Positions 2,513-62,698 are shown, numbered from the stretch's first letter. The stretch is DNA of 64,000 nucleotides from Candidatus Sulfomarinibacteraceae bacterium (GCA_963796455.1 CAWCLO010000001.1:928001-992000), one strand, 5' to 3'. Translations and numbers: made by a program. The notes: generated from the letters alone by a model not told the origin.

Positions 2513-2624
2513 GGGGCTATCGGCTATCGGCCGTAAGCTATAGGCTATAGGCTATGGGCTATGGGCTATGGGCTGCAGGCTGTAGGCTGCAGGCTGTGGG
2601 CTGTGGGCTGTGGGCGATGGGCTG
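2513..2624 (+). repeat. Tandem heptamer array GGCTAT(C/A/G) drifting to GGCTG(C/T)N, about 16 units
   Basis: Read directly from the sequence. Confidence 0.9.
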
Positions 2625-2736
2625 AGGTTAGTCGGCTCCCATTTGTCAGCGATACCATTACCTTCTTCATCGTGCAATTCAGCCTACTTGCGTCACGGTG
2701 ACTTCGCCTCTCGACTCCTGGCTTACTGCTATTGTT

Positions 2737-2757
2737 TATAGCCTATAGCTTATAGCT
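2737..2757 (-). repeat. Inverted partner array (TATAGCC/TATAGCT x3)
   Basis: Reverse complement of the 2513-2624 unit; contains the stop codon of the MBL gene. Confidence 0.75.
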
Positions 2758-3621
2758 TTTCGGGGCGTTGCTCACCGCCGCCTTGACGAAGTTGAGCCTC
2801 GAAAACTCCCTCGTCGTCAACAACTCGAAGAATCGGTCTTTCATCCTGCCCTTGGCAAAAACACGGCTCGCGATCCTGCGTGGTGACAGACCCTTGGCGG
2901 TCAGTTCCAGGGAGCGCCGGGCCGCGTCCTCGATACGGTCAGCCTTGAGTTCGAGGCTTGGGGCCGGATCGTCGACTATCGCTCCGTGACCGGTCAACAT
3001 GCGGCGAGGGGCGAGGGCGGCGACCCGACGCAAGGACTCCGCCTCCTGCCACGGGTTGCCCCAGATGAGCACCGCGGTCGCACCGGGAGAGACAAAAAGA
3101 TCGCCGGAAAAGACATATCCGGTCGCCCGCTCGAAAAACGCAACCTGAGTCCGGGAATGGCCCGGCGTCGGAATGACCTCGAGTCTTCGGTCGGAGGTCG
3201 TCATCACCTCAGGAAGCTCGGTCGCTTCGAATTCGGCCACCGGCCCCCACCAGGCGCGGCGATAGGGTGCCAGCGAACGAACGCCCTCCTCCCACAATCG
3301 ATCGGCCTCGCGGAGAAAAACCGGACAACCGTGGGCGGCGGCGATGGCAGCGCAATTTCCGGTGTGGTCTTCGTGATTGTGGGTGCAGGCGACGGCTGCA
3401 ACATCGCGGCCGGAGAGCGCAGCCAGGAACGCTTCGCCACCATGGGAGAAACCGCTATCGATCAGCAGATCGCCGAGCAGGTAAGCGTTCACCTCGAAGC
3501 CGAGTCGGCGGGTCCCTCGGCTTTGAATACGAAATCTGCAGACACCCTCACCAACCTCGTCCACAGTCACCCGGACTGCTTGCGTCCGAGCCCACGCCCG
3601 ATGAATGAAGCTCTGCCGCAC
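2743..3621 (-). CDS. MBL-fold metallo-hydrolase
   Basis: THNHEDHTG, TPGHS, SGD and GHG motifs. Confidence 0.9.
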   Translation of the reverse strand: MRQSFIHRAWARTQAVRVTVDEVGEGVCRFRIQSRGTRRLGFEVNAYLLGDLLIDSGFSHGGEAFLAALSGRDVAAVACTHNHEDHTGNCAAIAAAHGCPVFLREADRLWEEGVRSLAPYRRAWWGPVAEFEATELPEVMTTSDRRLEVIPTPGHSRTQVAFFERATGYVFSGDLFVSPGATAVLIWGNPWQEAESLRRVAALAPRRMLTGHGAIVDDPAPSLELKADRIEDAARRSLELTAKGLSPRRIASRVFAKGRMKDRFFELLTTREFSRLNFVKAAVSNAPKSYKL

Positions 3622-3689
3622 CTCGGCATCTTACTCGATACTGGATGCTGGATTCCCGAACCAGATGGCTGAGGGACTGAGTAACAATC

Positions 3690-3975
3690 GCTATCGCTAT
3701 CGGAATCGCTATCAATATCGAACGGCTGCTGTGGATACCGTTCCTGAAAGGGAGAAAGGGAGAAAAGGAGAAAGGGGGAACCATCGATCACGGATATTTC
3801 CTGCACGCGAAAATCGCCTCCCGATGTCATCCTGAGCGGAGCCCGCCCTGGGGCGTAGTCGAAGGATCTATGAGATGGACCGCAGAGACCCGTGAGCCGC
3901 AGATCCTTCGACTCGGCCGTCGGACGGCCTCGCTCAGGATGACATATTGAACGACAGTTCCGATCCCGATCCCGT
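3690..3975 (+). repeat. Composite intergenic element: ATCGCT hexamers, GGGAGAAA octamers, paired TGTCATCCTGAGCG palindrome, CCGATC hexamers
   Basis: Homologous in inverted orientation to 48690-48976. Confidence 0.85.
3824..3945. repeat. Paired palindromic element ATGTCATCCTGAGCG...AGTCGAAGGATCT / AGATCCTTCGACT...CGCTCAGGATGACAT
   Basis: Two inverted ~45-bp arms, each with an internal hairpin. Confidence 0.9.
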
Positions 3976-4035
3976 TGCAGAAGGGGAGAAAGGGAGAACC
4001 GTACCGGAGGCGTCGCTTGTGATAAGGGCCGTGTG

Positions 4036-4281
4036 TCCTCTGCTCCTCTGCTCCTCTGCCTCCTCTGCTCCTCTGCTCCTCTGCTCCTCTGCTCCTCTGG
4101 CTCCTCTAAGGCTCCTCTGGCTCCTCTGCTCACTCTGCTCCTCTGCTCCTCTGCTCCTGCTGCTCGCTCCGCTGCTCCTCAGGCTGCCTCTGCTACGTCT
4201 GCTCCTCTGCTCCTCTGCTCCTCTGCTCCTCTGCTCCTCTGCTCCTCTGCTCCTCTGCTCCTCTGCTCCTCTGCTCCTCTG
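4036..4281 (+). repeat. Tandem octamer array (TCCTCTGC)n, about 30 units, degenerate in the middle
   Basis: Read directly from the sequence. Confidence 0.95.
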
Positions 4282-4382
4282 GAGATCTGAATTTCGATAC
4301 CGGTAGCGATTGCGGCATGCACCACCAACGAAATAGATGATGAATCCGTTTTGCTTTCTCTTGCAGCGACAAGGAGATCAAT

Positions 4383-4769: not shown

Positions 4770-4853
4770 ATTTCGGATTTCGGATTTCGGATTTCGGATT
4801 TCGGATTTCGGATTTCGGATTTCGGATTTCGGATTTCGGATTTCGGATTTCGG
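4770..4853 (+). repeat. Perfect heptamer array (ATTTCGG)12
   Basis: Counted directly; starts 3 nt after the VOC stop codon. Confidence 0.95.
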
Positions 4854-4873
4854 ATTTTACCGGACATTTCATG

Positions 4874-7932: not shown

Positions 7933-8028
7933 ACCACCAAGACACCAAGTACACCAAGAACGCGCCAAGCGTTTCGAAGGCCGGGCCCGAGTATGAGTCC
8001 GTCTTGGTGTCCTTGGTGCCTTGGTGGT
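7933..8028. repeat. Inverted pair of CACCAAG-based 8/9-mer arrays (27-bp arms, 25/27 complementary) around a 42-bp core
   Basis: ACCACCAAGACACCAAGTACACCAAGA ... TCTTGGTGTCCTTGGTGCCTTGGTGGT. Confidence 0.9.
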
Positions 8029-8044
8029 GAAGCGGCGGCCGGCA

Positions 8045-8078
8045 TTCCTAATTCCTAATTCATCTAATTCCTAATTCT
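8045..8078 (+). repeat. Heptamer array ATTCCTA
   Basis: Read directly from the sequence. Confidence 0.75.
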
Positions 8079-8926: not shown

Positions 8927-8953
8927 AAATTCCGAATTCCGAATTCCGAATTC
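8927..8953 (+). repeat. Heptamer array AATTCCG
   Basis: Read directly from the sequence. Confidence 0.8.
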
Positions 8954-13377: not shown

Positions 13378-16300
13378 TCACCACTCCGGAACAGTCGCCC
13401 ATCCCGGGAACGGTCCAACCTCGATCTTCCAGCCGGTGGAGGACTCGGGGTCGCGGACCGCGCGGAGGTTGGTGAGGGTCTTGAGTTTGGCGATGAGCTC
13501 GTCGTGCGGCAGCGTATGCAACGGCGGTTTGTCTAAATCCGGCATCGGCCAGATGCGCACGGTCGTGTCGGAACCGGCCGAAGCGACCCACCGCAGATCG
13601 GGCGAAACGGCAACGCATTCGACCGCGCCTTCATGGCCCGCAAGCAGGTGCGGCTCACCGCCGCCAATGCGACCGACGCGGACGACGCCGTCGGCATCAC
13701 CCGTAACCGCAACGGCCCCCATCGGATCGAGAGCGACCACCCTGACGCAGTCGCCGAAAGATGGCAGCGCCTCGGTCGTTCCAGCTTCCAGATCGAAGAG
13801 CACCGGAGTCGCACAGATGTCCAGCTCAAGGCCCCCCCCGAGGCTCTCGACCATCAGCACCTTCAGTCCGTCGGCGCTTACCGCCGCTGTCCTGTAGCCG
13901 ACAGTTTCCAGCTCGACGGCCTCTTCGCTCGATCCGTCCTTCAGGTCCCATTTGAGGAACTTCGAAGCCCCAATCGTGAACAGGGTGTCCTCGTCGGTGA
14001 ACCAGAGGTTTTGCACGTTATCCTCGTAGACGGCCGAGGCCATCTCGGCCGACTCATCGGCGGAGTACCTGCTCATTTCAGACCTCGGCAGATCGAAGGC
14101 CCTCGCCTCTCCCGTTTCCAGATCCCACACCCGAAGCGTGTGCTCCTCGACGCCGATACCGGAGGCTGCTGCGACGAGGCGTCCACTCGGCGAGAACGCT
14201 GCCGCCTCGATCAATGTCTCGTTCGGAAAACCTTCCAGCCTTCGCGGCTCTCCGCCGTCCATCGGCACGACCACGAGGCGACCAGGTCGTCCTCCCGTCA
14301 CGTGCTCACCGGACGGGTCGAACACCGGGTTGGAGAGGATGTAATGCCTGGCCAGCTTCGGTGTCTCCGCCTGGTCGGCCTCCGAAAGCGGAAAGAGCCT
14401 GGCTCTTCCCGGCGGCCAGATCGTCGCCAGCCACCGGCCGTCGGGGCTGAAAGCCAGACCCTTCCGATACGAGGACGCGCCCTCGACGACGCTGGGATAG
14501 GTTTTGCGCAACGGCCAGAAGGTCGTTCCGGAACTGCCGCCGCCCGCAGTGGCGACCGCCCAATCGGATTTCGGATGCACGGCGAGTTGCGCGAACTGCC
14601 ACGAACCGCTCCGCCGCAGCTCGAGCGGCTGCGTTCCCGGCGGGGCCGAAAGATCCCACAACAGCCCCTTGCCGATCTCGCTTGCAGACTCGGGGTAGAT
14701 CCAACGACCCGTACGATCAAGGAGGAGACCAATATCGTCCGGCGCTCCTTCGGGTCTGGGAATCACCCGCAGCGGCCCGGCCCCGGGCGCTGCGAGCGAC
14801 CACACTCGAAGCGCTCCTTCGTCGTCGCGGGACATGAAGCGGCCGCCGTTCAATGTGTGATGACTCAACACTCTGGCACGATTTGCGTCGTGAACACCGA
14901 CGACAAGGTCGTTGCCTCTTTCGACCATGGGTAACGAGCTGGTGAAGATCGTGTCACCCGTGGCGTAGATCCAGGCGTCTCCCGACGGGTCAAAGAGAGA
15001 CGTGAAAGGTCGCAGCTCCTCCCAGTCGATCCTCCGGCCGAGATCCTCAGGCTCGCCTTCCGGCAGCCTCCAGGATCTCAGCAATATGTCCCATCTCCGC
15101 GTCGGGTGGCTCAGAAAGGTCTCCGTGAGGAGGCGATACCCCTCGACCTGCCAGTAGGTCGGCCCTCCGAACTCGATCGTCCGAAGGAGCCGTTCTTCCG
15201 GAATGGACCAGATGAAAACCCGCTCGGCATTAGCAGTCCGGAAGTGGACTCCCGTTGCCAGGAGCTTCTGCGAGATCCATTGGGCTCCCCACCCCTTGAC
15301 CGCACGCCTCCCGGGGGGGTCGAGAACGAGAGGTCCATCACCCGTATCCCACCAGACTGCCGCCACGTCTCTGAAGCCCATCAAGGCAATCGCGCTTCCG
15401 TCGGGGCTGAATCGTGGGAAGACCGCCGGTGCTCCACGGGAATCAAGGACAAGGACCGGCGGCGCCTCCCAGAGGGCTCTCATCACGAAGGACCGTGCCG
15501 CAGGAGAATCGGCCAGATTGAGGCTCGCCATGGTGTAGGCGAGCGCTTCAGTCGGATCTGTTGGGAGCTGGGCCTGGGCCAACGCAACGAGCTTGCTGGC
15601 CTCGGCACGCCTGGACTCTGAGACCGCTTGCTGGCGGGACAGGCCAACCACGACGAGAAACGCCAGCAGAACGGCGAATGCGGCGGCGACCCCGATCCGT
15701 CGGCGACGTTTTCTCCGCCTGGCGTGCGAAAACATCGCCCGGGAGTACTCTTCTTCGAGCTCGCTCAACCCGCCGGGGTACCGTTCCCGCCACGAAGCGA
15801 ACTCGCGAAAGGCGGCGCCACTCCACAACCGGTCGCGGTGACGTCCATGCTCGTCCCAGGAACGTGCCGTCTGCCTCAGCTCATCTCTCATGCGTGCCGA
15901 GTCGGCGTCCTGGGTCTGCCATCCGATGAGCCGCGGCCAGTTGGTGAGCAGCGATTCGTGGATGATCTCGATGCGCCTCGTCGATTCATCTTCTTCTTCA
16001 CGAAGCTCGTAGGTTGTGAGCAGCCGTGCATCGGTCAATTCACGTAATACCTCCTCGGGCGACTCGCGTTGCGAATCGCTGAATACAGACAACAGTTCGT
16101 CCCACTCGCGCACGGCGCGTGTGCCCTCGGCGGTGACCAGGTTGCGGAAAAGCTCGCGGACCACGCCCTGGCGACCCCTTCCGATCCGCTCCAAAACTGC
16201 CTCGGCGTGGTGGGCCAGCGCACCCGCGACCCCGCCGATGTCACCATATGCCTCCCGTGTCAGCATCTTGCGCTCGCGATCGCGCGTCTCCCACAACCGC

Positions 16301-17457
16301 GCGACGGCAAATGCGAGGAGCGGCAACGCGCCGCGCTCTCCCTCCACGGCCTCCAACATCTCATCCACAAGGCCGTCATCCTCGAATGCGTAGCCGAACC
16401 GTGCCGCCGGTTGCTCGAGGGCGCGACGCAGGTCCTCGCGGGCCGGCACCTTGACGGGGGTGAGGGAATCGAAGATCGGCTCGAGTTCCTCGTGGTCGTG
16501 ACATCTGAAGAGAAAGTCATCTCTCAAGCCCAGCAAAACGTGGACGTCCGCCTTCCGCGCGAGATGGCCGATCAATCCCGCAAATCGCGCCTGGACTTCA
16601 GGTGGGTTGAGTGTAAGGAGTTCTTCGAATTGATCAACGATCAAAAGTGCCTGCCCGTGCAGCTGCCGCCACCGCGCCACCAGGGTGGCCGCGGTGTCGG
16701 CGTCACGGACACCCACCAGCCCTTCCACAGCCTCCCGATCACCCTCGAACTCGGGCAGGAGCGCCCGCGCGAGCCCCGCGAGTGGATCGTCACCGGGATG
16801 GCAGACGACCACCCCCCAACCGTCGGGGGCTGCGGGCACCAGACCCGCCCTCAAGAATGAGCTCTTGCCGACGCCCGACGGGCCAATCACGGCCAGCAGA
16901 CGCCGGGAGGTGATCTTGCGCCACAACTGTGTTACCTCGGCCTCGCGGCCGAAGAAGATCTCGGCGTCGGCCTCGGTGAAGGCGGCAAGCCCGGGGTAGG
17001 GGTTGAGGCTCTCTTCTCCCAACCGAGCAGGGAAATGAGCGATTGTCGCCCTGGTCGGGGGGTTCATCTCCATCGGCGCGATCAGCCGGTAGCCTTTGCG
17101 GTGGATGGTCTCGATGTAACGCGGCTGTTTGGCGTCGTCGCCGAAAGTTCGACGCAGCTCGGCGACCGCCCGGGTGAGGGTCTTTTCGGTGATGAACTCG
17201 GTCGCCCACACGGTGTCGGTGATCTCCCGGCGGGTCACCAGCTCTCCGGCTCTCCCCGCCAGACACACCAGCACATCCATCATCTTGAGCTCGATCTGGA
17301 TCGACTCCTCGCCCCGGGTCAGGCGGTTGAGGCGCGGATCCACCCGCCAGTCGCCGAGCCGAAACGAGGCATCCGCCAACTCGTGATGCTCAGTTGTCGT
17401 GGTCACCTTGAGATGAATATGGGTCGCGGTTCCTTCGAATGCCAGAAAGTTGGGCAT
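13378..17457 (-). CDS. OmpR/CadC-type winged HTH + STAND (nSTAND1-like) NTPase + WD40 repeat protein
   Basis: YIETIHRKGYRL; PYPGLAAF; Walker A GPSGVGKSS; Walker B IVDQFEE; C-terminal WD repeats (GHEGAV..SPD..DTTVRIW). Confidence 0.9.
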   Translation of the reverse strand: MPNFLAFEGTATHIHLKVTTTTEHHELADASFRLGDWRVDPRLNRLTRGEESIQIELKMMDVLVCLAGRAGELVTRREITDTVWATEFITEKTLTRAVAELRRTFGDDAKQPRYIETIHRKGYRLIAPMEMNPPTRATIAHFPARLGEESLNPYPGLAAFTEADAEIFFGREAEVTQLWRKITSRRLLAVIGPSGVGKSSFLRAGLVPAAPDGWGVVVCHPGDDPLAGLARALLPEFEGDREAVEGLVGVRDADTAATLVARWRQLHGQALLIVDQFEELLTLNPPEVQARFAGLIGHLARKADVHVLLGLRDDFLFRCHDHEELEPIFDSLTPVKVPAREDLRRALEQPAARFGYAFEDDGLVDEMLEAVEGERGALPLLAFAVARLWETRDRERKMLTREAYGDIGGVAGALAHHAEAVLERIGRGRQGVVRELFRNLVTAEGTRAVREWDELLSVFSDSQRESPEEVLRELTDARLLTTYELREEEDESTRRIEIIHESLLTNWPRLIGWQTQDADSARMRDELRQTARSWDEHGRHRDRLWSGAAFREFASWRERYPGGLSELEEEYSRAMFSHARRRKRRRRIGVAAAFAVLLAFLVVVGLSRQQAVSESRRAEASKLVALAQAQLPTDPTEALAYTMASLNLADSPAARSFVMRALWEAPPVLVLDSRGAPAVFPRFSPDGSAIALMGFRDVAAVWWDTGDGPLVLDPPGRRAVKGWGAQWISQKLLATGVHFRTANAERVFIWSIPEERLLRTIEFGGPTYWQVEGYRLLTETFLSHPTRRWDILLRSWRLPEGEPEDLGRRIDWEELRPFTSLFDPSGDAWIYATGDTIFTSSLPMVERGNDLVVGVHDANRARVLSHHTLNGGRFMSRDDEGALRVWSLAAPGAGPLRVIPRPEGAPDDIGLLLDRTGRWIYPESASEIGKGLLWDLSAPPGTQPLELRRSGSWQFAQLAVHPKSDWAVATAGGGSSGTTFWPLRKTYPSVVEGASSYRKGLAFSPDGRWLATIWPPGRARLFPLSEADQAETPKLARHYILSNPVFDPSGEHVTGGRPGRLVVVPMDGGEPRRLEGFPNETLIEAAAFSPSGRLVAAASGIGVEEHTLRVWDLETGEARAFDLPRSEMSRYSADESAEMASAVYEDNVQNLWFTDEDTLFTIGASKFLKWDLKDGSSEEAVELETVGYRTAAVSADGLKVLMVESLGGGLELDICATPVLFDLEAGTTEALPSFGDCVRVVALDPMGAVAVTGDADGVVRVGRIGGGEPHLLAGHEGAVECVAVSPDLRWVASAGSDTTVRIWPMPDLDKPPLHTLPHDELIAKLKTLTNLRAVRDPESSTGWKIEVGPFPGWATVPEW

Positions 17458-17511
17458 TGAGTTGTGGGTTCCACCTAGCCTCCCCTAATGCCTCTCGGGT
17501 TGGCGGGTGGC

Positions 17512-17551
17512 AAATCCGAAATTCGAAATCCGAAATCCGAAATCCGAACTC
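17512..17551 (-). repeat. Heptamer array (ATTTCGG on the minus strand)
   Basis: AAATCCG units directly after the stop of the 17556 gene. Confidence 0.85.
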
Positions 17552-21544: not shown

Positions 21545-21581
21545 AAAAAAAAACGCCCGCCCTTCAAATCACGGGCGGGCG
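21545..21581 (-). terminator. Rho-independent terminator
   Basis: CGCCCGCCC/GGGCGGGCG stem with a 9-nt T-tract on the minus strand, downstream of the sulfatase-like gene. Confidence 0.75.
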
Positions 21582-21600
21582 GGAATTCCAAATCCGAATT

Positions 21601-22929
21601 CTATTGGATATACCCGAGGCTCTTTAGCTGCTTCAGGGTCTCCTCGTCGAGATCTTCTTCGGATCGGAGATTCGGATCGAGAGATGTGGCCGCGACCATC
21701 TTCTCCCACGCCTGGAGATGGCGGACCATTACGCCGAGCTTGTCGGCCTCGGTCTCGGCGAGATCATCGAGTTGCAATGGGTCGGCAATGAGGTCATAGA
21801 TACCGGCGTTCTCGCCTGCGGATTCGCTGAGAAGCCCCATTCCACCAAGAGCCACAAAACGTTGACCACCGGCCTGCGGCGATTCGGCAAAGGCGATGTA
21901 TGGCGGAGTACCGGAACCGTTGATGATCGGCAGCAGACTCGAACCCTGGGTGCCGCCAGGCGCCTGTCCGCCGGCAAGCTCGAGGAGGGTCGGCATCAGA
22001 TCGACAACCTCGGTGACCTTGGAAATGACCTTGGCGCCCTCGCCGCCCGGTAGGCGGATGAGGACCGGCACGTGGGTGACCGCGGTATCGAGGGTTTCAC
22101 CAAACAGACCGGCGTGCTCCTGAAGGGCGAAACCGTTGCTGCCGAGGACAACGAGCACGGCCCGCTGGTCGAGACCGAGTTCCCTGAAGGTGGCCATGAA
22201 CCCGACGAGCAACGAGTCGATGACCTGGATCCGGGCGGCGTACCACGAACTCACCCACTCGAGTTCCTCGTCGGTGAAGGAAAGCGGCGTATCGCCCGCT
22301 CTCGAGGCCATGACCTCTTGCACCCGCCCGCTCATCTCCGGGGCGCCATCACCCTCGAGGAGGGCGTTGACCTTTTCCAGCGCCGGTCTCGACCACCCAC
22401 CGAAGACGAGAAGGAAATTCTCGTTGGAGTGGTCGGCCATCCATGAAATGGCCTCGTCACCCGGTGTTGCGGTGATCTGGTAGCTATCGAATCCCTGCGC
22501 CAGGCCACGATCGCTGTCGGCTGGCGAGCCTTCCATAAAAGCAGCCGTCGAATAGCCCGCGGCACCCAGTATCTCGGCCAGGGTTCGCGCCCCATCTGCG
22601 AGGTATTCACCTGGTTGGCGGAGACCGTTGGCAGTCGGATAGAGGCCGCTGAAGAGGGTGGCGAGAGAGGGTTGGATATGGGGCGCCTGGGCAAAGGCCC
22701 ATTCAAATCGAATGGACTCGGCTGCCAATGCATCAAAGACCGGCGTCCTGGCGACCGCGCCATAGGCGCCGAGCGCATCCGCCCTCAGACCGTCGATGGC
22801 GAGAATGACGATTGGACGAGGACCTGTGATCACGCCTTCCCGTGCGGCGTCGTGATCACTTCTGACGCAAGAACCGAGCACGACGAAAGACACAGCGGCA
22901 ACCGCAAAAACACCGAGCGTACGTTTCAT
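21601..22929 (-). CDS. Sulfatase-like protein with degenerate catalytic motifs
   Basis: ILAIDGLRAD..G.YG, TPVFD, HVP, QLKSLGYI; lacks the CxPxR nucleophile and DHG. Confidence 0.85.
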   Translation of the reverse strand: MKRTLGVFAVAAVSFVVLGSCVRSDHDAAREGVITGPRPIVILAIDGLRADALGAYGAVARTPVFDALAAESIRFEWAFAQAPHIQPSLATLFSGLYPTANGLRQPGEYLADGARTLAEILGAAGYSTAAFMEGSPADSDRGLAQGFDSYQITATPGDEAISWMADHSNENFLLVFGGWSRPALEKVNALLEGDGAPEMSGRVQEVMASRAGDTPLSFTDEELEWVSSWYAARIQVIDSLLVGFMATFRELGLDQRAVLVVLGSNGFALQEHAGLFGETLDTAVTHVPVLIRLPGGEGAKVISKVTEVVDLMPTLLELAGGQAPGGTQGSSLLPIINGSGTPPYIAFAESPQAGGQRFVALGGMGLLSESAGENAGIYDLIADPLQLDDLAETEADKLGVMVRHLQAWEKMVAATSLDPNLRSEEDLDEETLKQLKSLGYIQ

Positions 22930-22969: not shown

Positions 22970-23096
22970 GGGAAAGAGAGAAAGGGAGAAAGGGAGAAAG
23001 GGGGAATCGCGAGAGCCCACCGATCCCGCATACCCAATTCCTCATTCCTCATTCCTCATTCCTCATTCCGAACTCCGAACTCCGAACTCCGAACTC
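22970..23096. repeat. GGGAGAAA array (left), then ATTCCTC and ACTCCGA arrays (right)
   Basis: Read directly; lies in a divergent intergenic region. Confidence 0.85.
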
Positions 23097-24378: not shown

Positions 24379-24593
24379 GTTGTGCGGGCTTCTTGCCCGC
24401 ATAACGAATATCCCCCACCGCCCTTGTGGTGCGGCCGTCCCGGCCGCACATTCTTGCGGTTTATCCGGGTACCGTTGTGGTGCGGCCGTCCCGGCCGCAC
24501 ATTTTCGACCTCAGTGGAATCGTGCGGGCGAGACGCCCGCACCACAAAAACTCTCGCTACCCTTGGAAGCCCGGCGGGTCACCCGAACCACAA
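24379..24593. repeat. REP cluster left of the RAYT gene
   Basis: TTGTGGTGCGGCCGTCCCGGCCGCAC x2, an inverted GTGCGGGCGAGACGCCCGCACCACAA, and degenerate copies. Confidence 0.9.
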
Positions 24594-24603
24594 TCAGAAT
24601 GAA

Positions 24604-25227
24604 TCAATCATCACCCACACGATACCTTGCGCTTCCGAACGGCCAGTCTTGAGGCCGATCACAAAGTCCGGCCACCACCGGATTCCTCTCGGTGTAGACC
24701 ACGAATCTCTCGAAAGCCCGCTCGCCGCGAACGAGATGATCGAAGGTCTCTTCCTCCCAGATGCCTCCCTTTCTTTCCAGGGCTCTGTTGATCTCGTGTG
24801 CTGAAAACGACTTCCACGAGTGAAGAATCGTGGGCAGTGTGAATCCCGAAAACGGCGTCACCACGGCATGGACGTGGTTGGGCATAACGCACCAAGCACT
24901 GAGCGCGTAACGGTTCCCCTGAAAGTGCAACAGAGATCCTTCGACGACCGAAGCAACTCTCGGATCCCCCAGCAGACAACTGCCGGTAAAAGGCTCGGGG
25001 TCCAGTACAGACGCTATGAGGTCTGGGGTTTCATCGGCAACGATACGGCGTCTTCGAAGCACCTTTTGAGGGACCGCATCAAACAAATTGAATGTCACGA
25101 AATAGCTACAGCCGTCTTTGTAAAGGTGCGGCAGATTACCTCTCCATTGAGGCATTGTGTGGGGTTCGGACCGAGGATCGACAATCCTTTCCGGCACCAT
25201 CGGCGTCGATTTTTTGCGGTCGTTCAT
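24604..25227 (-). mobile_element. REP-associated tyrosine (HUH/Y1) transposase, RAYT
   Basis: LPH...YFVTF, VMPNHVH (HUH), WKSFSA, W...FDH, Y..RNPV.AGL...W..GS; flanked by REPs. Confidence 0.9.
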
Positions 25228-25265
25228 CGTCTGCCGATTGTCTCATCTCAACTGATTGACCGCCA

Positions 25266-25383
25266 TTGTGGTGCGGCCGTCCCGGCCGCACATTTTCGAC
25301 CTCAGTGGAATCGTGCGGGCGAGACGCCCGCACCACAACAACTTCGCTACCGTTGGAACGCGGGCGGGACGCCCGCACCACAA
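25266..25383. repeat. REP cluster right of the RAYT gene; direct repeat of 24475-24593
   Basis: 25266-25338 is identical to 24475-24547. Confidence 0.9.
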
Positions 25384-25390
25384 CGGGAGG

Positions 25391-28446: not shown

Positions 28447-28479
28447 ATTTGGGATTTCGGATTTCGGATTTCGGATTTC
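28447..28479 (+). repeat. Heptamer array ATTTCGG
   Basis: Read directly from the sequence. Confidence 0.85.
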
Positions 28480-36528: not shown

Positions 36529-36561
36529 CCCCCCTGCTCCCTTTCTCCCTTTCTCCCTTTC
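36529..36561 (+). repeat. Octamer array CTCCCTTT
   Basis: Read directly from the sequence. Confidence 0.75.
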
Positions 36562-46210: not shown

Positions 46211-46437
46211 CTCCCGATCCCGTTCCCGAAAGGGAGAAAGGGAGAAAGGGAGAAAGGGAGAAAGGGAGAAAGGGAGAAAGGGAGGGGAACCGTACCGGAA
46301 ACTTCGTTCGTGATAAGGAACGGGTGTCCTCTGCTCCTCTGCTCCTCTGCTCCTCTGCTCCTCTGCTCACTCTGCTCCTCTGCTTCTGCTCCTCTGCTCC
46401 TCTGCTCCTCTGCTCCTCTGCCCTCTGCTCCTCTGCT
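46211..46437 (+). repeat. Composite module: CCGATC, (GGGAGAAA)n, linker AACCGTACCGGA-N10-GTGATAAGG, (TCCTCTGC)~14
   Basis: Same order and linker spacing as 3960-4281. Confidence 0.9.
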
Positions 46438-48373: not shown

Positions 48374-48450
48374 GGATTAGGATATTTCCAATTTCGAATT
48401 TCGGATTTCGAATTTCGGATTTCGGATTTCGGATTTCGGATTTCGGATTT
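48374..48450 (+). repeat. Heptamer array ATTTCG(G/A)
   Basis: Starts at the ABC-F stop codon. Confidence 0.9.
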
Positions 48451-48468
48451 TCGCCAACCCATCACATA

Positions 48469-48563
48469 AGAAACCGCAGATCACGCAGATGACATGAGGC
48501 CGTCCCGGCACTGGCCGATTGTCATCCTGAGCGACGGAGCTTCGCGACCGAGTCGAAGGATCT
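48469..48563 (+). repeat. Second copy of the CGCAGAT/TGTCATCCTGAGCG module
   Basis: 32-bp and 44-bp blocks identical to 4874-4905 and 4934-4977. Confidence 0.9.
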
Positions 48564-48689
48564 GCGCGGATAAGGAATCGCTTTCGATGTGGCGGCGATT
48601 CCGACCCGGCTGGGAGCAATCCGTATCTCCCTTTCCCCCCTGCTCCCTTTCTCCCCCCCCCCCCTTCGCCATTGGTCCGCCCAATTTCG

Positions 48690-48976
48690 GAATCGGGATC
48701 GGGATCGGAACTGTCGTTCAAGATGTCATCCTGAGCGAAGCGCCTGTGGCGCGGAGTCGAAGGATCTGCGGCCTTGGGTCTCTCCCGTGTGCGCCATAGA
48801 TCCTTCGACTACGCCTCTGCGGGGCTGCGCTCAGGATGACATCGGGAGGCGCCATTCGTGTGCTGGGAAAATCCGTAACCTGTGGTTCCCCCTTTCGGGA
48901 AAGCGTGCGAATCGCGAGTGGGGTAAGAAAGATGGACCATTGGTTGCCCATCGATAGCGATTCCGATAGCGATAGC
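48690..48976 (-). repeat. Inverted copy of composite element 3690-3975, with the paired palindrome at 48723-48842
   Basis: Manual alignment of the reverse complement. Confidence 0.85.
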
Positions 48977-49030
48977 AAGAGGAAGCCGAGCCGCCCCTCA
49001 GCCCCCGTGCCCCTCTACCATCCTGGTTCG

Positions 49031-49065
49031 TGCATCCTGCATCCTGCATCCTGCATCGAGTATCC
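49031..49065 (+). repeat. Heptamer array TGCATCC
   Basis: Read directly from the sequence. Confidence 0.85.
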
Positions 49066-51358: not shown

Positions 51359-51691
51359 GATCACTCTTGTCCCAGACAGAGTCTCGGATAGCGTGCAGGG
51401 ACAGCGCCAGAGAACGGTCGACAGCGTCAGCGAACTGGAGTCAGGGGCAGTGTTCAGCTATCAGCACTCAATTCGTCGGGTTCAAGAGCCGCAAGATAAT
51501 GGCCCGAACCTGATCGAAGGTGTTCATCGCCTCACGGGCGCCCGCCCACCGGCCACCCCGTTCCGTTGCACAACCCGGAGGTGGTGGCCACGCCGCCACC
51601 TGGACTCCTGAACGCTGCCGCCGATCGCTGCAAACTGATCGCTGACCGTTGTTCCCTGTCGCTGATCACTGTCGCTGCCGCTGCAATTCGG
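51359..51691. repeat. Foldback element: GACAGC-type hexamer arm, core, CGCTGT-type arm
   Basis: Inverted homolog of 61100-61396 with shared ends and core. Confidence 0.8.
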
Positions 51692-51860
51692 ACGCGGACG
51701 AGGACGCGGGCACGGGGCAACGGCGAACCGAATATGCCCAAAACCAACCCGTAAACCCCGTGTTGTCAATCGGGCAACTTCAGATCACGATCTGTTTTGG
51801 ACAGCACTGATACAGGAAGATAGTCGATTCACCTGACGGCTTGCCACTGGTCGAGTGCGA

Positions 51861-51896
51861 TGAATCCTGAATCCTGAGTCCTGTGGCCTGAATCCC
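51861..51896 (+). repeat. Heptamer array TGAATCC
   Basis: Read directly from the sequence. Confidence 0.75.
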
Positions 51897-54993: not shown

Positions 54994-55073
54994 GGGCTAT
55001 GGGGCTATGCGCTATGGGGCTATGGGGCTATGCGCTACTTAGGGGCTATGGGGCTATGGGGCTATGGGGCTAT
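54994..55073 (+). repeat. Tandem array (GGGGCTAT)n, about 10 units
   Basis: Read directly from the sequence. Confidence 0.92.
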
Positions 55074-55100
55074 TGAGCAATCGGTGTTCGTTGGCAGGAG

Positions 55101-55457
55101 TCAATAGGACCTGCGCTTCTGAATGAATGAGGCAAGAGCGGCCGCCGTTCTGCCTTGCGATTCGCGCAGCTTTTCTGATTTCCCATCGGCCAAATATCCC
55201 AGCCTGTGAGAAAGGTCGATCAGGTACCCCAATTCCCGGACCGATCCAAATGCGATATCGAGAAAACGGTCGAATTCGGTTTCAGTCCTTCGGCCACAAC
55301 CTTCTACAATATTTGCGGCGACAGAGACGGAGCACCGTCTCATCTGGCTGACCAATCCATAGAGTTCGTCCTGTGGATAACTTTTTGTCGCTTGGTAAAC
55401 GAGAATCACCAGATCATCTGCCAACCGATAAACATCAAGCTTTCGATGGTCTCTCAA
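55101..55457 (-). CDS. Four helix bundle protein (23S rRNA-IVP / Avd-like family)
   Basis: RDHRKLDVY, YPQDELYGLVSQMRR.SVSVAANIVEG, FLDIAFGS..E, LGY. Confidence 0.92.
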   Translation of the reverse strand: MRDHRKLDVYRLADDLVILVYQATKSYPQDELYGLVSQMRRCSVSVAANIVEGCGRRTETEFDRFLDIAFGSVRELGYLIDLSHRLGYLADGKSEKLRESQGRTAAALASFIQKRRSY

Positions 55458-55494
55458 AGCGTTCTCACTTTAGATCGGAGGCTCCAAACCCGTG

Positions 55495-55531
55495 ATCGCC
55501 ATAGCCTTATAGCCCCACAGCCTCATAGCCT
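55495..55531 (-). repeat. Inverted partner array (ATAGCC(C/T)N units)
   Basis: Reverse complement of the 54994-55073 unit; abuts the upstream gene's stop codon. Confidence 0.85.
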
Positions 55532-57546
55532 CATTGCCCATTCACCGCCTGCGCTACCAACTCGATGACATCGTAGGTCGTCGCGTCCTCATGCCCCATT
55601 TCGTTCTGGGCATCGGAGAGCATCGAGTAGCAGTAGGGGCATGCGACTGCCGTGTCCTTCGTTCCGGTGGCCTCGAGCTGGGCGAACCGGGTCTGGTTGA
55701 TGCGCTCTCCGATGCTTTCCTCGAGCCACATCCGACCGCCGCCGGCGCCGCAGCACATCGAGGTTTCACGACTGAGTTCGGCCTCCCGTACATTGACGCC
55801 CGGAATCGCGTTGAGGAGGAATCGCGGCGCGTCGTATTCGCCGTTGGTGCGGCCGAGATAACAGGGATCGTGATAAGCCACGTCGACATCGACCGTCGCG
55901 GTGAGCTTCACCTTGCCCGACCGTACGAGATCGGCGACGAGTTGGGTGCCGTGGACGACTTCGTACTCTCCGCCGAACTCGGGATACTCGTGCGCCAAGG
56001 TATTGAAGGCGTGCGGGCAATTGGTGACGATTTTCTTGACGCCATAGCCGTTCATGGTCTCGATGTTTTGCTGCGCCAGCATCTGGAAGAGGTATTCGTT
56101 GCCGAGCCGGCGCGCCGCGTCGCCGGTCGAGACCTCCTCGGGACCGAGGATGGCGATCTTGACACCGGCGGTCTGGAGAATCTTGACCATCGCCTGCGAG
56201 ACCTTTTTGCCGTGATCGTCGTAGCTTCCGGGCGACCCGACAAAAAACAGATATTCGAAATCGCCCGCGGCCTCCGCAGCAAGCGGGACACCGAGATCTG
56301 AGGCCCAGTTGCCGCGTTCTTCCGCCGGCAGCTGCCACGGGTTGCCGTTGACCTCGTAGCCGCGGAAGGCAGGTTGGGCTTCGTCGGGGAACTCCGCTTT
56401 CTCGAGCACCAGGTTCCGCCGCAACTCCACCAGCTTGTCGACGTAGCTGATATCGAGGGGACACGCCCGTTCGCACCAGCGGCAGGTGGTGCAAGCCCAG
56501 ATGACCTCGGGATCAACGACCACCGGCACCAGTTGATGTTCGGATCGGTGATCCGCTTCTCCGGGCGAACCGAGAATGTCCTGCTGCTCGGCATAGAGTT
56601 GATCTCGCACGCTCTTCAGAAAAAGCACCGGCTGCAGCGGTTTGTGGGTGAGGGTGGTCGGACAATACTCCCGGCAGCGTCCGCACTCGGTACAGGTGTA
56701 CATATCGAGCATCTGCTTCCAGGTGAAGTCGGTCACCGTCGAGATACCGAACGTGGTGTTGTCGTCGATGTTCTCGAGATCCATGCTCGGCAATTTGCCG
56801 GGAGCATCGAGATTGGCGAAAAAGACGTTGAATATCGAGGTGTAGACGTGGAAGTGCTTGGAGTACGGCAGTTCGTTGGCAAAGGCGAACAGGGTGATGA
56901 GGTGGACCCACCAGCTGAAGCCGTAGATGAATTGGAGCTTCGCCGCGCTGAGACCTGAAAAGGCGCCCGCTACGAGACTCGAGATCGGAAGATAGGAGCC
57001 CTCGAGCTCACCGGCCGCAATGCGCGCGCCCTCCGATGTCAGGTCGGTGATCATGAGGATGGCGATAAAACCAATCACCAACCAGGCGCCCCAGCTCTGA
57101 ATCACGCGCTCCTTCTTCTGGATGCCCCGTCGCCAGATGGCGAAAGCGAGACCGACCAATACCAGCAACTCGAATATGTCCTTGGAGAACAAATAGGCGT
57201 GGCCCACCGGCGAATCGAGGAGCGGCAGTTCCCAACCCGCAAAAAGGCCCTCGAGGACCATGGTCACCGTGCGCACGCTGACCACCAGGAAACCGTAGAA
57301 GATCAGCAGGTGATAGAAACCGGCCAGCTTGTCGTCAAACATCTTCCTCTGACCGAAGGCGTAGACCATCATGTGTTTGAATCGCTCACCTATACGGTCG
57401 AAACGATTGTCCGCCCGGCCGCTCCTGAGAAGCTGAATCCGCCGGCTCAGCGAAAAGATGACTGCGCCGACACCGAAAATCGTGAGAATCCAGAACCAAA
57501 CAACCCCGGAAATCCCCAGAAACGACCCAGCGGTGGCGTGATGCAT
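55531..57546 (-). CDS. Membrane-bound Fe-S oxidoreductase (FadF/HdrF-like)
   Basis: TM N-terminus; CTECGRC...CP, CTTCRWC...CP; CCG domain (HDPCYLGR, CCGAGGG). Confidence 0.9.
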   Translation of the reverse strand: MHHATAGSFLGISGVVWFWILTIFGVGAVIFSLSRRIQLLRSGRADNRFDRIGERFKHMMVYAFGQRKMFDDKLAGFYHLLIFYGFLVVSVRTVTMVLEGLFAGWELPLLDSPVGHAYLFSKDIFELLVLVGLAFAIWRRGIQKKERVIQSWGAWLVIGFIAILMITDLTSEGARIAAGELEGSYLPISSLVAGAFSGLSAAKLQFIYGFSWWVHLITLFAFANELPYSKHFHVYTSIFNVFFANLDAPGKLPSMDLENIDDNTTFGISTVTDFTWKQMLDMYTCTECGRCREYCPTTLTHKPLQPVLFLKSVRDQLYAEQQDILGSPGEADHRSEHQLVPVVVDPEVIWACTTCRWCERACPLDISYVDKLVELRRNLVLEKAEFPDEAQPAFRGYEVNGNPWQLPAEERGNWASDLGVPLAAEAAGDFEYLFFVGSPGSYDDHGKKVSQAMVKILQTAGVKIAILGPEEVSTGDAARRLGNEYLFQMLAQQNIETMNGYGVKKIVTNCPHAFNTLAHEYPEFGGEYEVVHGTQLVADLVRSGKVKLTATVDVDVAYHDPCYLGRTNGEYDAPRFLLNAIPGVNVREAELSRETSMCCGAGGGRMWLEESIGERINQTRFAQLEATGTKDTAVACPYCYSMLSDAQNEMGHEDATTYDVIELVAQAVNGQ

Positions 57547-57625: not shown

Positions 57626-57667
57626 AATTAGGATTTAGGATTTAGGATTTAGGAATTCAGATTTCGG
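57626..57667 (+). repeat. Heptamer array ATTTAGG
   Basis: Read directly from the sequence. Confidence 0.85.
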
Positions 57668-60121: not shown

Positions 60122-60240
60122 GAGTTCGAAATTCGGAGTTCGGAGTTCGGAGTTCCGTGCATCCAACCACGCGGTGACACCCAAGATCATTCGAGAAATG
60201 GCCGAAAATTCCGAATTCCGAATTCATCATTCCGAATTCG
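60122..60240. repeat. Inverted heptamer arrays (AGTTCGG ... CCGAATT) around a ~45-bp core
   Basis: Read directly from the sequence. Confidence 0.8.
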
Positions 60241-60317: not shown

Positions 60318-60839
60318 ATGAGTCACGACATTGATTTCAGTACCCTTTCGCTCCGCGACACCCTCGACCTCGCCGTATCGGTGGAGGAAGAAGCCAAGGA
60401 GCGCTATGACGATTTCGCCGAGCAGATGGATGCGCACCGGACGCCTGAGGCCGCGAAGTTTTTCCGCTTCATGGCGGACAACGAGATCAAGCATGCCGAG
60501 AAGTTGAGCGCCCGGCGCAAGGAACTCTTTGGCGACGCACCGAGCACGGCCGACACATCGATGATTTATGACATCGAGGCTCCGGAGTTTGATGCCGCGC
60601 GCGCGTTCATGTCCATTCGCGCCGCCCTCGATGTCGCGATGGAGTCCGAGGTCAAGGCCTATGAATTCTACGACCAGGCGCTGCCGACCATCGAAGACCG
60701 TGAAGTCAAAAAGCTCTTCATCGAGCTCCGAGACGAAGAAATGCGTCATCAGGAGATGATCACCGAAACGATGGCCAAGGTTCCCGAGGGCGACGGCTTC
60801 GACCCCGACGATTTCGTGGACGGTCCGGCCGCTCAATAG
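60318..60839 (+). CDS. Ferritin/rubrerythrin-like protein
   Basis: E..A..Y, EIKH, E..A..FY, EMRH diiron ligands. Confidence 0.9.
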   Translation: MSHDIDFSTLSLRDTLDLAVSVEEEAKERYDDFAEQMDAHRTPEAAKFFRFMADNEIKHAEKLSARRKELFGDAPSTADTSMIYDIEAPEFDAARAFMSIRAALDVAMESEVKAYEFYDQALPTIEDREVKKLFIELRDEEMRHQEMITETMAKVPEGDGFDPDDFVDGPAAQ

Positions 60840-60902
60840 CTCGAAGCGCACCAGAAAAAATCTCGGAAAACCGCGGAGTATCCAGGGGCCGGATACGGTC
60901 TG

Positions 60903-61005
60903 AGAAACCGCAGATCACGCAGATGACATGAGGCGGTGCCGACCGTGGCTACACCGCCTCATGTCATCCTGAGCGAGGGAGTTTCGCGACCGAGTCGAAG
61001 GATCT
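60903..61005 (+). repeat. Third copy of the CGCAGAT/TGTCATCCTGAGCG module, with a perfect 17-bp stem
   Basis: 60922-60938 pairs with 60952-60968. Confidence 0.9.
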
Positions 61006-61099
61006 ACGCAGATAAGGAATCGCTACCGTCATCGTGTCGCTATCGCTATCGAAAAGCGAAAACTCCGAGGTCTATTCAATGGCGGTCCCGATCCCGATC

Positions 61100-61396
61100 C
61101 CGAATTGCAGCGGCAGCGACAGTGTTCAGCGTCAGCGACAGGCAACAGCGAACAGGGACAGCGACAGAGAACAGCGATCAGTGTTCAGCGGCAGCGGCAG
61201 CGATCAGGTCCGTGCCATGACCTGGCGGCTGTTGAACCCAAAAATTAACGTACCGTTCCCTGACGCTGACGCTGCTCGCCGACGCTGGTTCCTGTCGCTG
61301 TCGCCGACTCCTGTTCGCTGACGCTGTACACTGATCGCTGTTCCCTGTCTCTGACGCTGATCGCTGTCTAAGACCCTGTCTTGGACAAGAGTGATC
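61100..61396. repeat. Foldback hexamer element (homolog of 51359-51691)
   Basis: GACAGC-type left arm and CGCTGT-type right arm. Confidence 0.8.
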
Positions 61397-61565
61397 GAGT
61401 ATCGAGTATCGAGTATCGAGCGAATGGTCTCCCTTTCCCCATGCTCCTCTGCCGATGGTTGACGCGCCAAAAATCCGAAATCCGAAATCCGAAATTGATC
61501 TCCCCTTCCCCCTTTCTCCCCTTCCCCCTTTCTCCCTTTCTCCCTTTCTCCCTTTCTCCTCTTCT
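61394..61565 (+). repeat. Stacked arrays ATCGAGT, AAATCCG, TCTCCCTT
   Basis: Read directly from the sequence. Confidence 0.85.
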
Positions 61566-61626
61566 ACCCGGCACCCGTTCTCACAATTGATGAACCCGCA
61601 AGGTCGTTGCGGTTACACTTGAAGGG

Positions 61627-62649
61627 ATGCCTTATTCCCCCGAGCCCGCCGCCGTTTCTGATCCGCCGCCAGCGGGTGTCCTGCTCGTCAACACCGGGTC
61701 ACCGGTCGAAGCAAAAGCGGCAGCGGCACGAGAGTACCTCCGTCAATTCCTTACCGATCCGAGGGTCGTCGAACTGCCCCGCCTCCGATGGTGGTTGCTG
61801 CGAAACCTGATCATCCTCCCCTTCAGGCCCTATCGGACGGCCCGCGCCTACCGCCGAATATGGACCGAGGACGGTTCGCCTCTCGTCGCCACCGGGCGCC
61901 ACCAGGCCGCCGACCTCGAGTGGCAGCTCGGGCAGAGAATCGACCGGCCTGTGCCCGTCTTTACAGGGATGCGCTATGGGAAACCTTCCATAGCCGCGGC
62001 GCTCGGCGTTCTTCGGCGTCGCGGCTGCCGGAGAATTCTCGTGCTCCCCCTCTTTCCGCAGTATTCGGCGACCACCACCGCTTCCGCCTACGACGAGGTA
62101 TTTCGCGAACTTTCGGCTTGGCGGCGGGTTCCCGAACTGCGGACAGTCGGCGACTATCACGACCACCCCGCCTATATCGGTTCGGTGATTTCGAGTATTT
62201 ACGATTTTTGGAAGGACAAAGGCAAACCGCAACGCCTCTTGATCAGCTTCCACGGTCTACCGGTTCGTTATATTGAAAACGGCGACCCTTACGAGGACCA
62301 CTGTCGTGCGACAGCGGCTATCATTTCTTCCCGGCTCGATTTTGATAACAATCGCGTCGAAACCGTCTTCCAGTCTCGCTTTGGCCGCGAGGCGTGGATC
62401 GAACCCTACCTCACCGACGTCCTCCGCCGCTCGGGACGCGAAAGACTGTCGACCCTGGACGTGGTCTGTCCCGGTTTTGCCGCCGACTGTCTGGAGACCC
62501 TCGAGGAGATCGATGTGGCCGGCCGCAAGATCTTCACGAAGGCCGGCGGCGAAGAGCTTCGCTACATCCCCGCACTCGGCCGCCGCCCCGATCACATCAG
62601 TGCGCTGGCCGAGGTGGCGATCGAGCATCTCGGTGGGTGGATCGTCTAA
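61627..62649 (+). CDS. hemH: Ferrochelatase
   Basis: GVLLVNTGSP, YLRQFLTDPRV, GSPL, MRYGKP, PLFPQYS, SFHGLP, FQSRFG, DCLETLEE. Confidence 0.96.
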   Translation: MPYSPEPAAVSDPPPAGVLLVNTGSPVEAKAAAAREYLRQFLTDPRVVELPRLRWWLLRNLIILPFRPYRTARAYRRIWTEDGSPLVATGRHQAADLEWQLGQRIDRPVPVFTGMRYGKPSIAAALGVLRRRGCRRILVLPLFPQYSATTTASAYDEVFRELSAWRRVPELRTVGDYHDHPAYIGSVISSIYDFWKDKGKPQRLLISFHGLPVRYIENGDPYEDHCRATAAIISSRLDFDNNRVETVFQSRFGREAWIEPYLTDVLRRSGRERLSTLDVVCPGFAADCLETLEEIDVAGRKIFTKAGGEELRYIPALGRRPDHISALAEVAIEHLGGWIV

Positions 62650-62698
62650 GGAGGCGAAGGGCTAAGGGGCTCTAGCCACCGCCGCTTCATCGCGCCTT

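Follow-up and report, generated by a model that had tools for sequence, protein, structure and literature searches.

The stretch analysed here, hereafter the window, comprises 64,000 nucleotides (nt) from a Candidatus Sulfomarinibacteraceae bacterium (GCA_963796455.1 CAWCLO010000001.1:928001-992000; G000:C1:928001-992000 in our numbering), part of an assembly of 5.02 Mb in 10 contigs, with 60% GC and 90.5% completeness. Its intergenic spacers hold many short tandem arrays with units of 6–9 bases, and at 54994-55538, between two convergent protein genes, two such arrays face each other as the arms of a cassette that carries a gene for a four-helix-bundle protein:

54994-55073, + strand: left, GG-form arm of the gene-bearing cassette, unit GGGCTATG, starting 20 nt past the stop codon of a PTPS (queD-like) gene
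55101-55457, − strand: four-helix-bundle gene of 118 amino acids (aa), assigned to PF05635 and TIGR02436 by profile scores, a relative of PDB 2gsc (XCC0516)
55495-55538, + strand: right, CC-form arm, unit CATAGCC(T/C), entering the stop codon of an Fe-S oxidoreductase gene and predicted to pair with the left arm

The reading that we prefer, with arguments for and against it in near balance, is that the arrays form the two arms, left and right, of small elements with mirror symmetry whose gene-bearing form is rare, and that gene-less copies probably spread in trans by means of the matching four-helix-bundle protein. The observations behind it are the pairing and position of the arms, a polarity that follows from the design of the cassette, a map from protein clade to repeat unit, and turnover and inversion of elements among congeners. 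The polarity pattern is real and strong; half of it was known already, and the link to the four-helix-bundle gene is new.

The product of 55101-55457 scores 104.9 bits against PF05635 (cut-off 33.8) and 101.3 against TIGR02436 (cut-off 24), and is related to the XCC0516 pentamer of PDB 2gsc (E 6e-21); its closest named relatives include Thermoanaerobaculia and Ca. Sulfomarinibacter records, so that the host is probably an acidobacterium belonging there. The two arms are predicted to pair into a stem around the open reading frame (ORF; fold z −4.9), and the earlier note on this DNA was right to single out the element at 54994 as intact: it is the gene-bearing form. Among 12 congeners with an intact junction, 3 have the cassette (1 with an internal stop) and the rest have different arrays, palindromes or another gene. 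The genome holds 76 PF05635 matches, of which 72 belong to one subfamily (59 with an intact frame) and 4 are different classic genes, each with its own inverted arms; three GxxExxY genes are armed as well. A broken GxxExxY cassette lies at G000:C1:748375-748795, a junction at which G015 and G006 (L122, L133) have a four-helix-bundle cassette within GxxExxY arm remnants.

Relatives of the protein carry arms of the same design. At 56 relatives' loci from many phyla, which form one clade and are not independent, upstream arrays were of GG form in 33 cases, CC in 3, both in 4 and neither in 1 (of 41), and downstream arrays were CC in 25, GG in 3, both in 2 and neither in 3 (of 33); an inverted match of at least 12 surrounds 40/56, a direct one 4/56. 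The family is found in 117 of 201 genomes of the phylum, and the 30 best matches from 200 phylum genomes repeat the arrangement (upstream GG 15, CC 1, both 4, none 4; downstream CC 14, GG 1, both 2, none 5). Because an inverted pair reads alike on both strands, GG-form arms upstream and CC-form arms downstream of the genes lead directly to the rule seen throughout the window, where GG-form arrays lie to the left and CC-form arrays to the right.

That rule had been put forward in the earlier note, as holding regardless of unit sequence or gene orientation. All 26 positions named there carry the repeat-like sequence claimed, and Tandem Repeats Finder (TRF; score ≥30 in the window, period 6–9 and score ≥40 genome-wide, arm edges approximate) reports 23 of the 25 rule-following window arrays, those at 21584 and 62650 being 2–3 degenerate units. 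With our own hexamer gene finder, which supplies the gene positions outside Pfam checks (4,106 genes, 83.6% coding, starts approximate), each of the 11 GG arrays in the window begins closer to the spacer's left edge, and each of the 14 CC arrays ends closer to its right edge. The array at 38153, flagged earlier as less clean, is closer to the right gene, yet its start lies immediately beyond the left gene's −35-like TTGACA.

Genome-wide, 1,110 arrays of period 6–9, 1,043 of them intergenic, total 46.7 kb (about 1% of the genome) and occur in 583 of 3,355 spacers, 306 of which hold a single array. The rule is obeyed by 514 of the 658 GG or CC arrays with a clear side (Fisher p 2e-49) and by 332 of the 363 arrays within 60 nt of a spacer end. 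Order within a spacer, which is independent of spacer-end calls, is stricter: for periods 7–8 and the GG/CC labels of the earlier note, GG precedes CC 166 times and CC precedes GG once, or 107 versus 0 counted by spacer, and with one random array drawn per spacer about 318 of 376 conform. Family labels give 199 versus 2, a count that is partly circular as the labels were taken from the side table. Neither the replication nor the transcription strand accounts for the polarity, which is found at positive GC skew (138/192) and negative skew (376/466) and in all four spacer types (++ 84%, −− 76%, convergent 81%, divergent 71%). Independence of gene orientation is thus genuine, and it requires no additional mechanism, since an inverted pair is identical when read from either strand.

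The further claim that unit sequence does not matter stands as a strong tendency of 7- and 8-mer arms, not as a law. Hexamers reverse the rule genome-wide (53 versus 22), GxxExxY-type arms break it, and the window doublet at 7935-7959 and 8003-8026 has CC on the left and GG on the right, a unit-length filter having dropped it from the 166:1 count. Neither GG nor CC is present in the unit of 358 of the 1,110 arrays, GxxExxY-type arms included, and several such families are polar as well (AGTTTTG, AGATGCT). Shared ancestry may be the cause of the G-leading inward strand.

Pairing of the arms was tested by family. The outer left and right arms are of the same family in 55 of 129 spacers, against 22.3 ± 4.1 in permutations, and families match across a host gene in 6/27 cases, against 4.6 expected. 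Arms that bracket host genes are thereby ruled out, and because families match within spacers and not across genes, the arms belong to the content of the spacer. This match bears out the earlier suggestion of inward-facing arms, and neither skew nor gene orientation explains it. The arms do not belong to one element, however, but to at least 10 unit families, each tied to a gene clade, in addition to GxxExxY cassettes and unrelated passengers with insertion-sequence (IS) ends. Position is constrained too: the distance from arm to stop codon has a median of 9 nt (≤15 nt in 190/299), that from arm to start a median of 65 nt, and a −10-like word lies just outside the arm in 61 of 219 start-side flanks (28 when shuffled; 10% in matched array-free spacers).

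Such strict placement at stop codons and promoter edges would also be expected if arrays arose in place by local slippage and were retained by selection, because G-leading arrays behind stop codons, or C-leading arrays ahead of promoters, do good or no harm (the G-quadruplex interpretation in Rehm 2015), and some doublets are indeed inherited in place across congeners. We consider this very improbable. Families match within spacers and not across genes; around their own genes the arms run GG–gene–CC, in the sense opposite to that at host genes; and a small number of units are found again at hundreds of places, gained and lost from lineage to lineage. In most units the longest G run is GG, or there is none: GGG is confined to GGGAGAAA, GGGCTATG and CTTGGGG in our unit lists, the most common 7-mers having GG or no run of G.

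The other arms, elements and passengers of the window are as follows:

2513-2624, + strand: gene-less left arm GGCTAT/GGCTGT, a tandem repeat of the cassette-arm family
2736-2758, + strand: short right arm TATAGC(C/T), at the stop of a metallo-beta-lactamase-fold gene
3632-4281, + strand: nested pile with left arms TGCTGGA, ATCGCT and GAAAGGGA, then a palindromic hairpin (3826-3943), a further GAAAGGGA arm, a dispersed core (3999-4027) and right arm TCCTCTGC x30 (4036-4281)
4770-4857, + strand: left arm ATTTCGG x12.6, 4 nt past a stop codon
7935-8026, + strand: gene-less doublet CACCAAGA ... CTTGGTGT, the CC-left, GG-right exception
8044-8077, + strand: right arm ATTCCTA, followed by −10-like TACACT
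8927-8953, + strand: right arm AATTCCG, followed by −10-like TAGACT
17512-17548, + strand: right arm AAATCCG at a stop codon, with a G-rich inner motif (17497-17506)
21584-21602, + strand: degenerate right arm, under the TRF threshold, with inner motif GGGCGGGCGG (21573-21582)
22970-23096, + strand: gene-less doublet of unlike arms, GAAAGGGA, a 30-nt loop, then ATTCCTC and TCCGAAC
28447-28479, + strand: lone left arm ATTTCGG; the junction lacks the array in G001, G005 and G008
36529-36561, + strand: right arm CTCCCTTT at a stop codon
38151-38185, + strand: lone left arm, GGGGCTT type, beginning just outside the left gene's −35-like box
46228-46437, + strand: gene-less element of GAAAGGGA arm, dispersed core (46290-46318) and TCCTCTGC arm
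48374-49065, + strand: nested pile with left arm ATT(T/A)(C/A)GG from the stop codon, a GxxExxY-type arm (48472-48490), palindromic hairpins, 6-mer arrays and right arm TGCATCC (49019-49065)
51362-51809, − strand: internally deleted IS4-ended mini-transposon with a 9-bp target repeat (7/9 alike), a passenger and no arm
51861-51895, + strand: right arm TGAATCC
57626-57664, + strand: left arm ATTTAGG, beside the left gene's −10-like TATACT; congeners have other families at this spot
60122-60239, + strand: typical gene-less doublet of AGTTCGG arm, unique 51-nt loop and AATTCCG arm
61087-61393, + strand: deleted mini-transposon with IS4 ends, carrying inner arms of its own of CAGCGA type (right end 61375-61393)
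61389-61565, + strand: three stacked right arms, GAGTATC, AAATCCG and TCTCCCTT
62650-62675, + strand: degenerate left arm of 2–3 units at a stop codon, under the TRF threshold

Elsewhere in the window, 13378-17457 encodes a 1,359-aa protein with a winged-helix domain, an nSTAND1 NTPase and WD40 repeats.

The usual gene-less unit consists of two arms of about 30 nt around a unique loop of about 40 nt. Loops measure 25–57 nt in 33 of 39 same-family doublets, with a median arm of 4.6 units; more broadly, 66 of 130 interiors from opening to closing arm span 20–60 nt, and 51 of 76 short loops are unique. Doublets are not purer than single arrays (89 versus 91%). Outside the 129 arm pairs, a direct repeat of at least 7 bp indicative of target duplication was found in none (2.1 expected), and an outer terminal inverted repeat in 2 (3.6 expected, with arm edges approximate); the arm-ended elements thus lack the terminal inverted repeats past the arms and the target-site duplication that mark IS-derived MITEs (miniature inverted-repeat transposable elements). 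Four DNA sequencing runs, too low in depth, gave no joint at any element.

One gene-less family has a common core, in about 39 copies with arms (41 pattern matches) and with a variable right arm; gene-less units therefore do get copied. The core, CCGTACCGG..GTGATAAGG (3999-4027 and 46290-46318 in the window), stands at a constant distance of about 7 nt before a right arm whose unit varies, and resembles the end of an element. IS982, by resemblance a candidate parent of the GTGATAAGG core, gave nothing above cut-off in 25 genomes. A palindromic repeat starting GTCATCCTGAGCG lies at 3826-3943, 4935, 48521, 48725-48840 and 60963 in the window, often joined to 6-mer and GAAAGGGA arrays; the composite of palindrome, 6-mer and GAAAGGGA arrays has been copied many times, and our search for its partner enzyme found none. 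The spacer at G000:C4:789319-790269, about 950 bp, consists largely of arms from several families piled on one another; in G002 and G014 this place is taken by a four-helix-bundle cassette whose arms are 6-mers.

The earlier note took the arrays to be arms of one class of element like the intact one at 54994, yet most orphans bear no trace of a gene. The explanation nearest to that view is decay alone, with each orphan the remains of an inserted gene cassette whose interior was deleted down to the shortest tolerated loop. The junction at C8:140331, a gene-less doublet here, holds gene cassettes in four congeners; the distance from stop to arm in cassettes clusters at 50–58 nt (14/45), close to the loop length; and a short G-rich inner motif is common to cassettes and orphan arrays. 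We nevertheless regard decay as unlikely. No partial classic four-helix-bundle gene was found in the 583 array-bearing spacers (2 intact genes, 8 mini-transposon copies and 1 marginal match, E 0.008), about 1,000 arrays face only 4 classic genes, all different and single-copy, and loops are unlike cassette flanks (mean score 9.3 versus 8.7 shuffled), so that no signal marks them as flank remnants.

The two arms of a doublet are independent variant mosaics, resembling each other no more than arms from different loci do (0.30 versus 0.35 permuted), and neither a template switch as the origin of the second arm nor selection for perfect pairing is supported. Mosaics of this kind are accounted for by repeat addition at broken ends, by which a telomerase-like activity would add a G-leading unit to each 3′ end of a break in a spacer, leaving arms that point inward, may be unlike and can stack. 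The same process would explain polarity across units, the stacked and unlike arms, the steady arm length and the absence of target duplication; bacteria are described as synthesizing tandem repeats with DRT10, and the protein is structurally related to Avd, a reverse transcriptase partner, according to the part of PMC10053308 available to us. We hold it to be quite improbable, as this 90.5% complete assembly has no reverse transcriptase (PF00078), only 11 of 25 genus genomes have one, often in multiple copies and group II intron-like by length, the proteins fall under the Avd cut-off (NF033474, best 23.1 bits versus 80), no template RNA was identified and one family has a shared core.

Arm unit and gene clade go together. 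Placed on a rapidly built tree of 58 proteins from the genus, the 13 groups of arms require 12 changes, as few as is possible (shuffled mean 42.6; 0/200 as low); the tree leaves out the armless L337 and L339, L336 (cut by a contig end), mini-transposon copies and duplicates, its arms were labelled by eye, not blind to the proteins, and many of its entries are orthologues from a single junction, with several clades found at more than one. Unit likeness increases with protein likeness (rho 0.28, 84 loci, 0/2,000 permutations), also for genus versus outside (rho 0.25, in a set containing two identical pairs). Every one of the ten chief orphan families of this genome has a counterpart in the genus, a gene clade flanked by arms of that family. 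Among the matches listed (150 of 331 genus matches used), genomes with the matching gene hold more of the array in 3/3 pairs (median per Mb 14 versus 1.5, 15 versus 3 and 24 versus 6.5; one-sided p 0.014, 0.07 and 0.08, with clear exceptions), and 5 of 6 wrong pairings gave p > 0.29.

Arms also turn over between lineages, and families expand in lineage bursts: AACGTTNN arrays occur in 17/25 congeners, with up to 317 matches per strand, and not at all in G000. Six congeners have other arm families at the same edge of the same junctions. At 57626 these are ATTTCGG, AATTCGG or GGGGAAA/GGAGCAG type arrays, clear in 4 of the 5 congeners shown; at 60839/61627, doublets of AGTTTTG or GGGGAAAA, the loop of G005 being inverted relative to G001 and G024; and at 24371/25391, where this genome has a RAYT locus, AGTTTTG/AATTTTG doublets in three congeners. 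At another junction, G016 and G024 (L108, L109) differ by inversion of the cassette interior.

Many of the 72 subfamily copies of PF05635 are bounded by ends of IS4 type and by 9-bp target repeats (mean identity 0.79; 21/67 exact), and 214 loci carry such mini-transposon sequence. The ends are those of ~1.4-kb NF033592 elements in metagenomes, where they are mostly outside arrays; an IS4 transposase is present in 1 of 25 genus genomes, itself within arrays. Here, 39 of 67 copies sit in 7-periodic DNA, against 135 of 5,000 random spacer control sites. The passenger at 51362, with ends shared with an IS4 transposase element and a 9-bp duplication, is an IS4-derived mini-transposon. In G005, G008, G014 and G016 ISL3-type ends flank the same gene at 15 of the 20 loci retrieved, and 14 of these lie within AACGTTNN arrays; the 8-bp target repeat (identity 0.93) equals the array period, also 8, and the ISL3 transposase of G008 has a similar end and is likewise located in an array. 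A Tn5/IS50-type transposase, suggested for the CACT ends by resemblance, gave no PF14706 match, the ends being of the NF033592 IS4 type, and the single DDE_Tnp_1 gene of the genome lacks CACT ends.

Ordinary transposases might then account for everything, if IS4- and ISL3-ended mini-transposons and similar elements carry the arms and adjacent deletions and footprints build the piles. The abundance of the subfamily, its target repeats and its concentration in periodic DNA favour this, as does the ISL3-ended version inside period-8 arrays. We find it quite unlikely, given the missing direct repeats and inverted-repeat excess outside the arm pairs, the metagenomic ends mostly outside arrays, the scarcity of the IS4 transposase in the genus and arm families that track the four-helix-bundle tree. 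Because IS4-ended copies are found in arrays that point either way, the polarity is not set by them; IS4- and ISL3-ended elements are guests that use the arrays and offer no explanation of it.

Three observations concern these guests. G008 (L138-L147) shows a very recent burst of an 822-bp ISL3-ended element, its copies 97–98% identical and nearly all inside AACGTTNN arrays. Full ISL3 (L277:1430-1470, G008) and IS4 (L279:1390-2850, G017) elements are themselves inserted in heptamer arrays. A long conserved hairpin just before the start codon of the mini-transposon-borne gene (L048:440-640, G000:C1 ~1250540-1250740) is kept in the IS4- and ISL3-ended versions.

Returning to mirror-image elements spread by matching proteins, we suggest that a newcomer would insert into the inner part of an element already in place, or substitute for it, through strand exchange at the loop or between arms that are alike, and left arms would thus pile up on the left and right arms on the right. 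The protein would recognize its own repeat and supply or recruit the cutting and joining step, as is thought for RAYTs and REPINs, and gene-less copies would spread in trans through the matching protein. Its conserved residues, in 130 proteins, are Q38, R41, S45, N49, E52, S72 and E75, with Q38, S45, N49 and E52 (130/130) and E75 (129/130) near-invariant.

A number of results weigh against this reading. The 130 proteins have no conserved His pair or Tyr, and we know of no catalytic role for the four-helix-bundle protein. The tree points to co-inheritance of unit and gene, not recognition. Two genus four-helix-bundle genes (L337, L339) have no arms; both lie directly behind a gene that looks PIN-like by eye. 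The assembly, 90.5% complete, lacks genes of the clades matching its ATTTCGG, AATTCGG, GATGCTG, AGTTTTG and GGGCTTG arrays, GATGCWG being abundant (117 matches) despite the missing gene, and G010 has an AATTTTG gene and only 1 array match. The association of genes with arrays at genome level is weak among the matches listed, with kin non-independent, and one wrong pairing reached p 0.07. Loops show no tendency to fold (mean z −0.32; 2/39 below −2), their lack of likeness to cassette flanks and the dissimilarity of paired arms count here too, whole-doublet copying is demonstrated only for the family with the shared core, and no new insertion or excision event was seen. Among candidate associations, viral-contig relatives of three other clades were sought and none found, and a search for a GIY-YIG partner gave a single match, in a 668-aa frame.

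A broader proposal, which we put forward tentatively and with more doubt than belief, is that the four-helix-bundle ('23S rRNA IVP') proteins are specificity factors, perhaps enzymes, of an undescribed class of mobile DNA, in which each clade reads or writes its own 6–9-base repeat and spreads doublets in trans; the heptamers of Xanthomonas, cyanobacteria and Beggiatoaceae would be non-autonomous copies. If this is true, two puzzles merge. We know of no source for the heptamer repeats over-represented in many bacteria, and PF05635 has to our knowledge had a structure since 2006 and no assigned function. It would also imply that DNA at the ends of genes is moved or rewritten under the direction of repeats, with no known transposase involved, and that about 1% of this genome and 583 of its 3,355 spacers are shaped in this way. 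About a dozen pairs of protein clade and repeat unit, mapped within a single genus, offer a direct handle on specificity. Even with a passive protein, the arrays are landing sites for IS4 and ISL3 elements, by analogy with repetitive extragenic palindromic sequences (REPs) for other insertion sequences.

A literature search covering few subscription journals found no paper linking PF05635 genes to tandem-repeat arms and none with a polarity rule across units. Polarity for single repeat types is known from Xanthomonas and Nostoc (Rehm 2015, PMC4692102, in the parts available to us); the link between gene and arms and the rule across units are new as far as that search goes.

The arm-ended elements differ from IS4- and ISL3-derived mini-transposons and mobile insertion cassettes, to which the passengers at 51362 and 61087 belong by their IS4-type ends and 9-bp target repeats, in having neither terminal repeats past the arms nor target duplications. 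Diversity-generating retroelements (DGRs) differ in both Avd, against whose NF033474 profile the protein here is sub-threshold, and the reverse transcriptase, for which the genome has no PF00078 match. The TAACTGA repeats of Beggiatoaceae, cyanobacteria and Bacteroidetes (MacGregor 2015, PMC4679880) are also heptamers, set in one orientation just before start codons; they were read as regulator sites, with horizontal spread suspected and no mechanism given. In contrast to the arrays here, almost no inverted pairs are reported for them, and the accessible portion of that paper makes no mention of four-helix-bundle proteins.

Intervening sequences of 23S rRNA with an ORF (Coxiella, Leptospira; PMC4990558, from its accessible text) share with the cassettes the protein family, complementary stem-forming ends and a sporadic presence, the protein being encoded within a stem that RNase III cuts. 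They lie in an rRNA gene, whereas the elements here occupy junctions of protein genes in both orientations, end in tandem repeats and have far more gene-less copies.

REPINs and their RAYTs (Bertels and Rainey 2011, PMC3337134, as far as its available text goes) are similarly extragenic inverted doublets in hundreds of copies, with unique spacers of preferred length and one usual orientation. Each REPIN type flanks a distinct single-copy gene, as is the case here for 4 genes and in the genus tree, but five families have no gene in the assembly. The arms here are tandem 6–9-mers around non-folding loops, whereas REPIN arms are imperfect palindromic REPs of about 20 nt with a folding spacer, and the four-helix-bundle gene lacks the HUH/Tyr motif of the RAYT transposase. 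The window has a RAYT gene of its own (24604-25227, NF047646 just above cut-off) with palindromic repeats on both sides (24418-25390); the Y1 genes of the genome have their own palindromes, as seen for this one.

The closest match is to the heptamers GGGAATC and GGGGA(C/T)T of Xanthomonas and Nostoc described in the accessible parts of Rehm 2015 (PMC4692102). Like the arrays here, they are intergenic, carry the G-rich form closer to the 5′ neighbour however that gene is oriented, and form convergent inverted pairs (70–75 of them there) with about four units, short loops (21–135 nt in the rows covered of table S2A) and no replication-strand bias. They were read as G-quadruplexes, and those parts connect them neither with XCC0516 nor with mobile DNA; GGG is absent from most units here. 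There is one unit per genome there and at least 10 here. Row 15 of table S2A nevertheless places a GGGAATC array 6 nt after bccP, overlapping the start of XCC0516, the PDB 2gsc protein; the table gives XCC0516 no downstream partner arm, whereas the classic genes here are armed on both sides.

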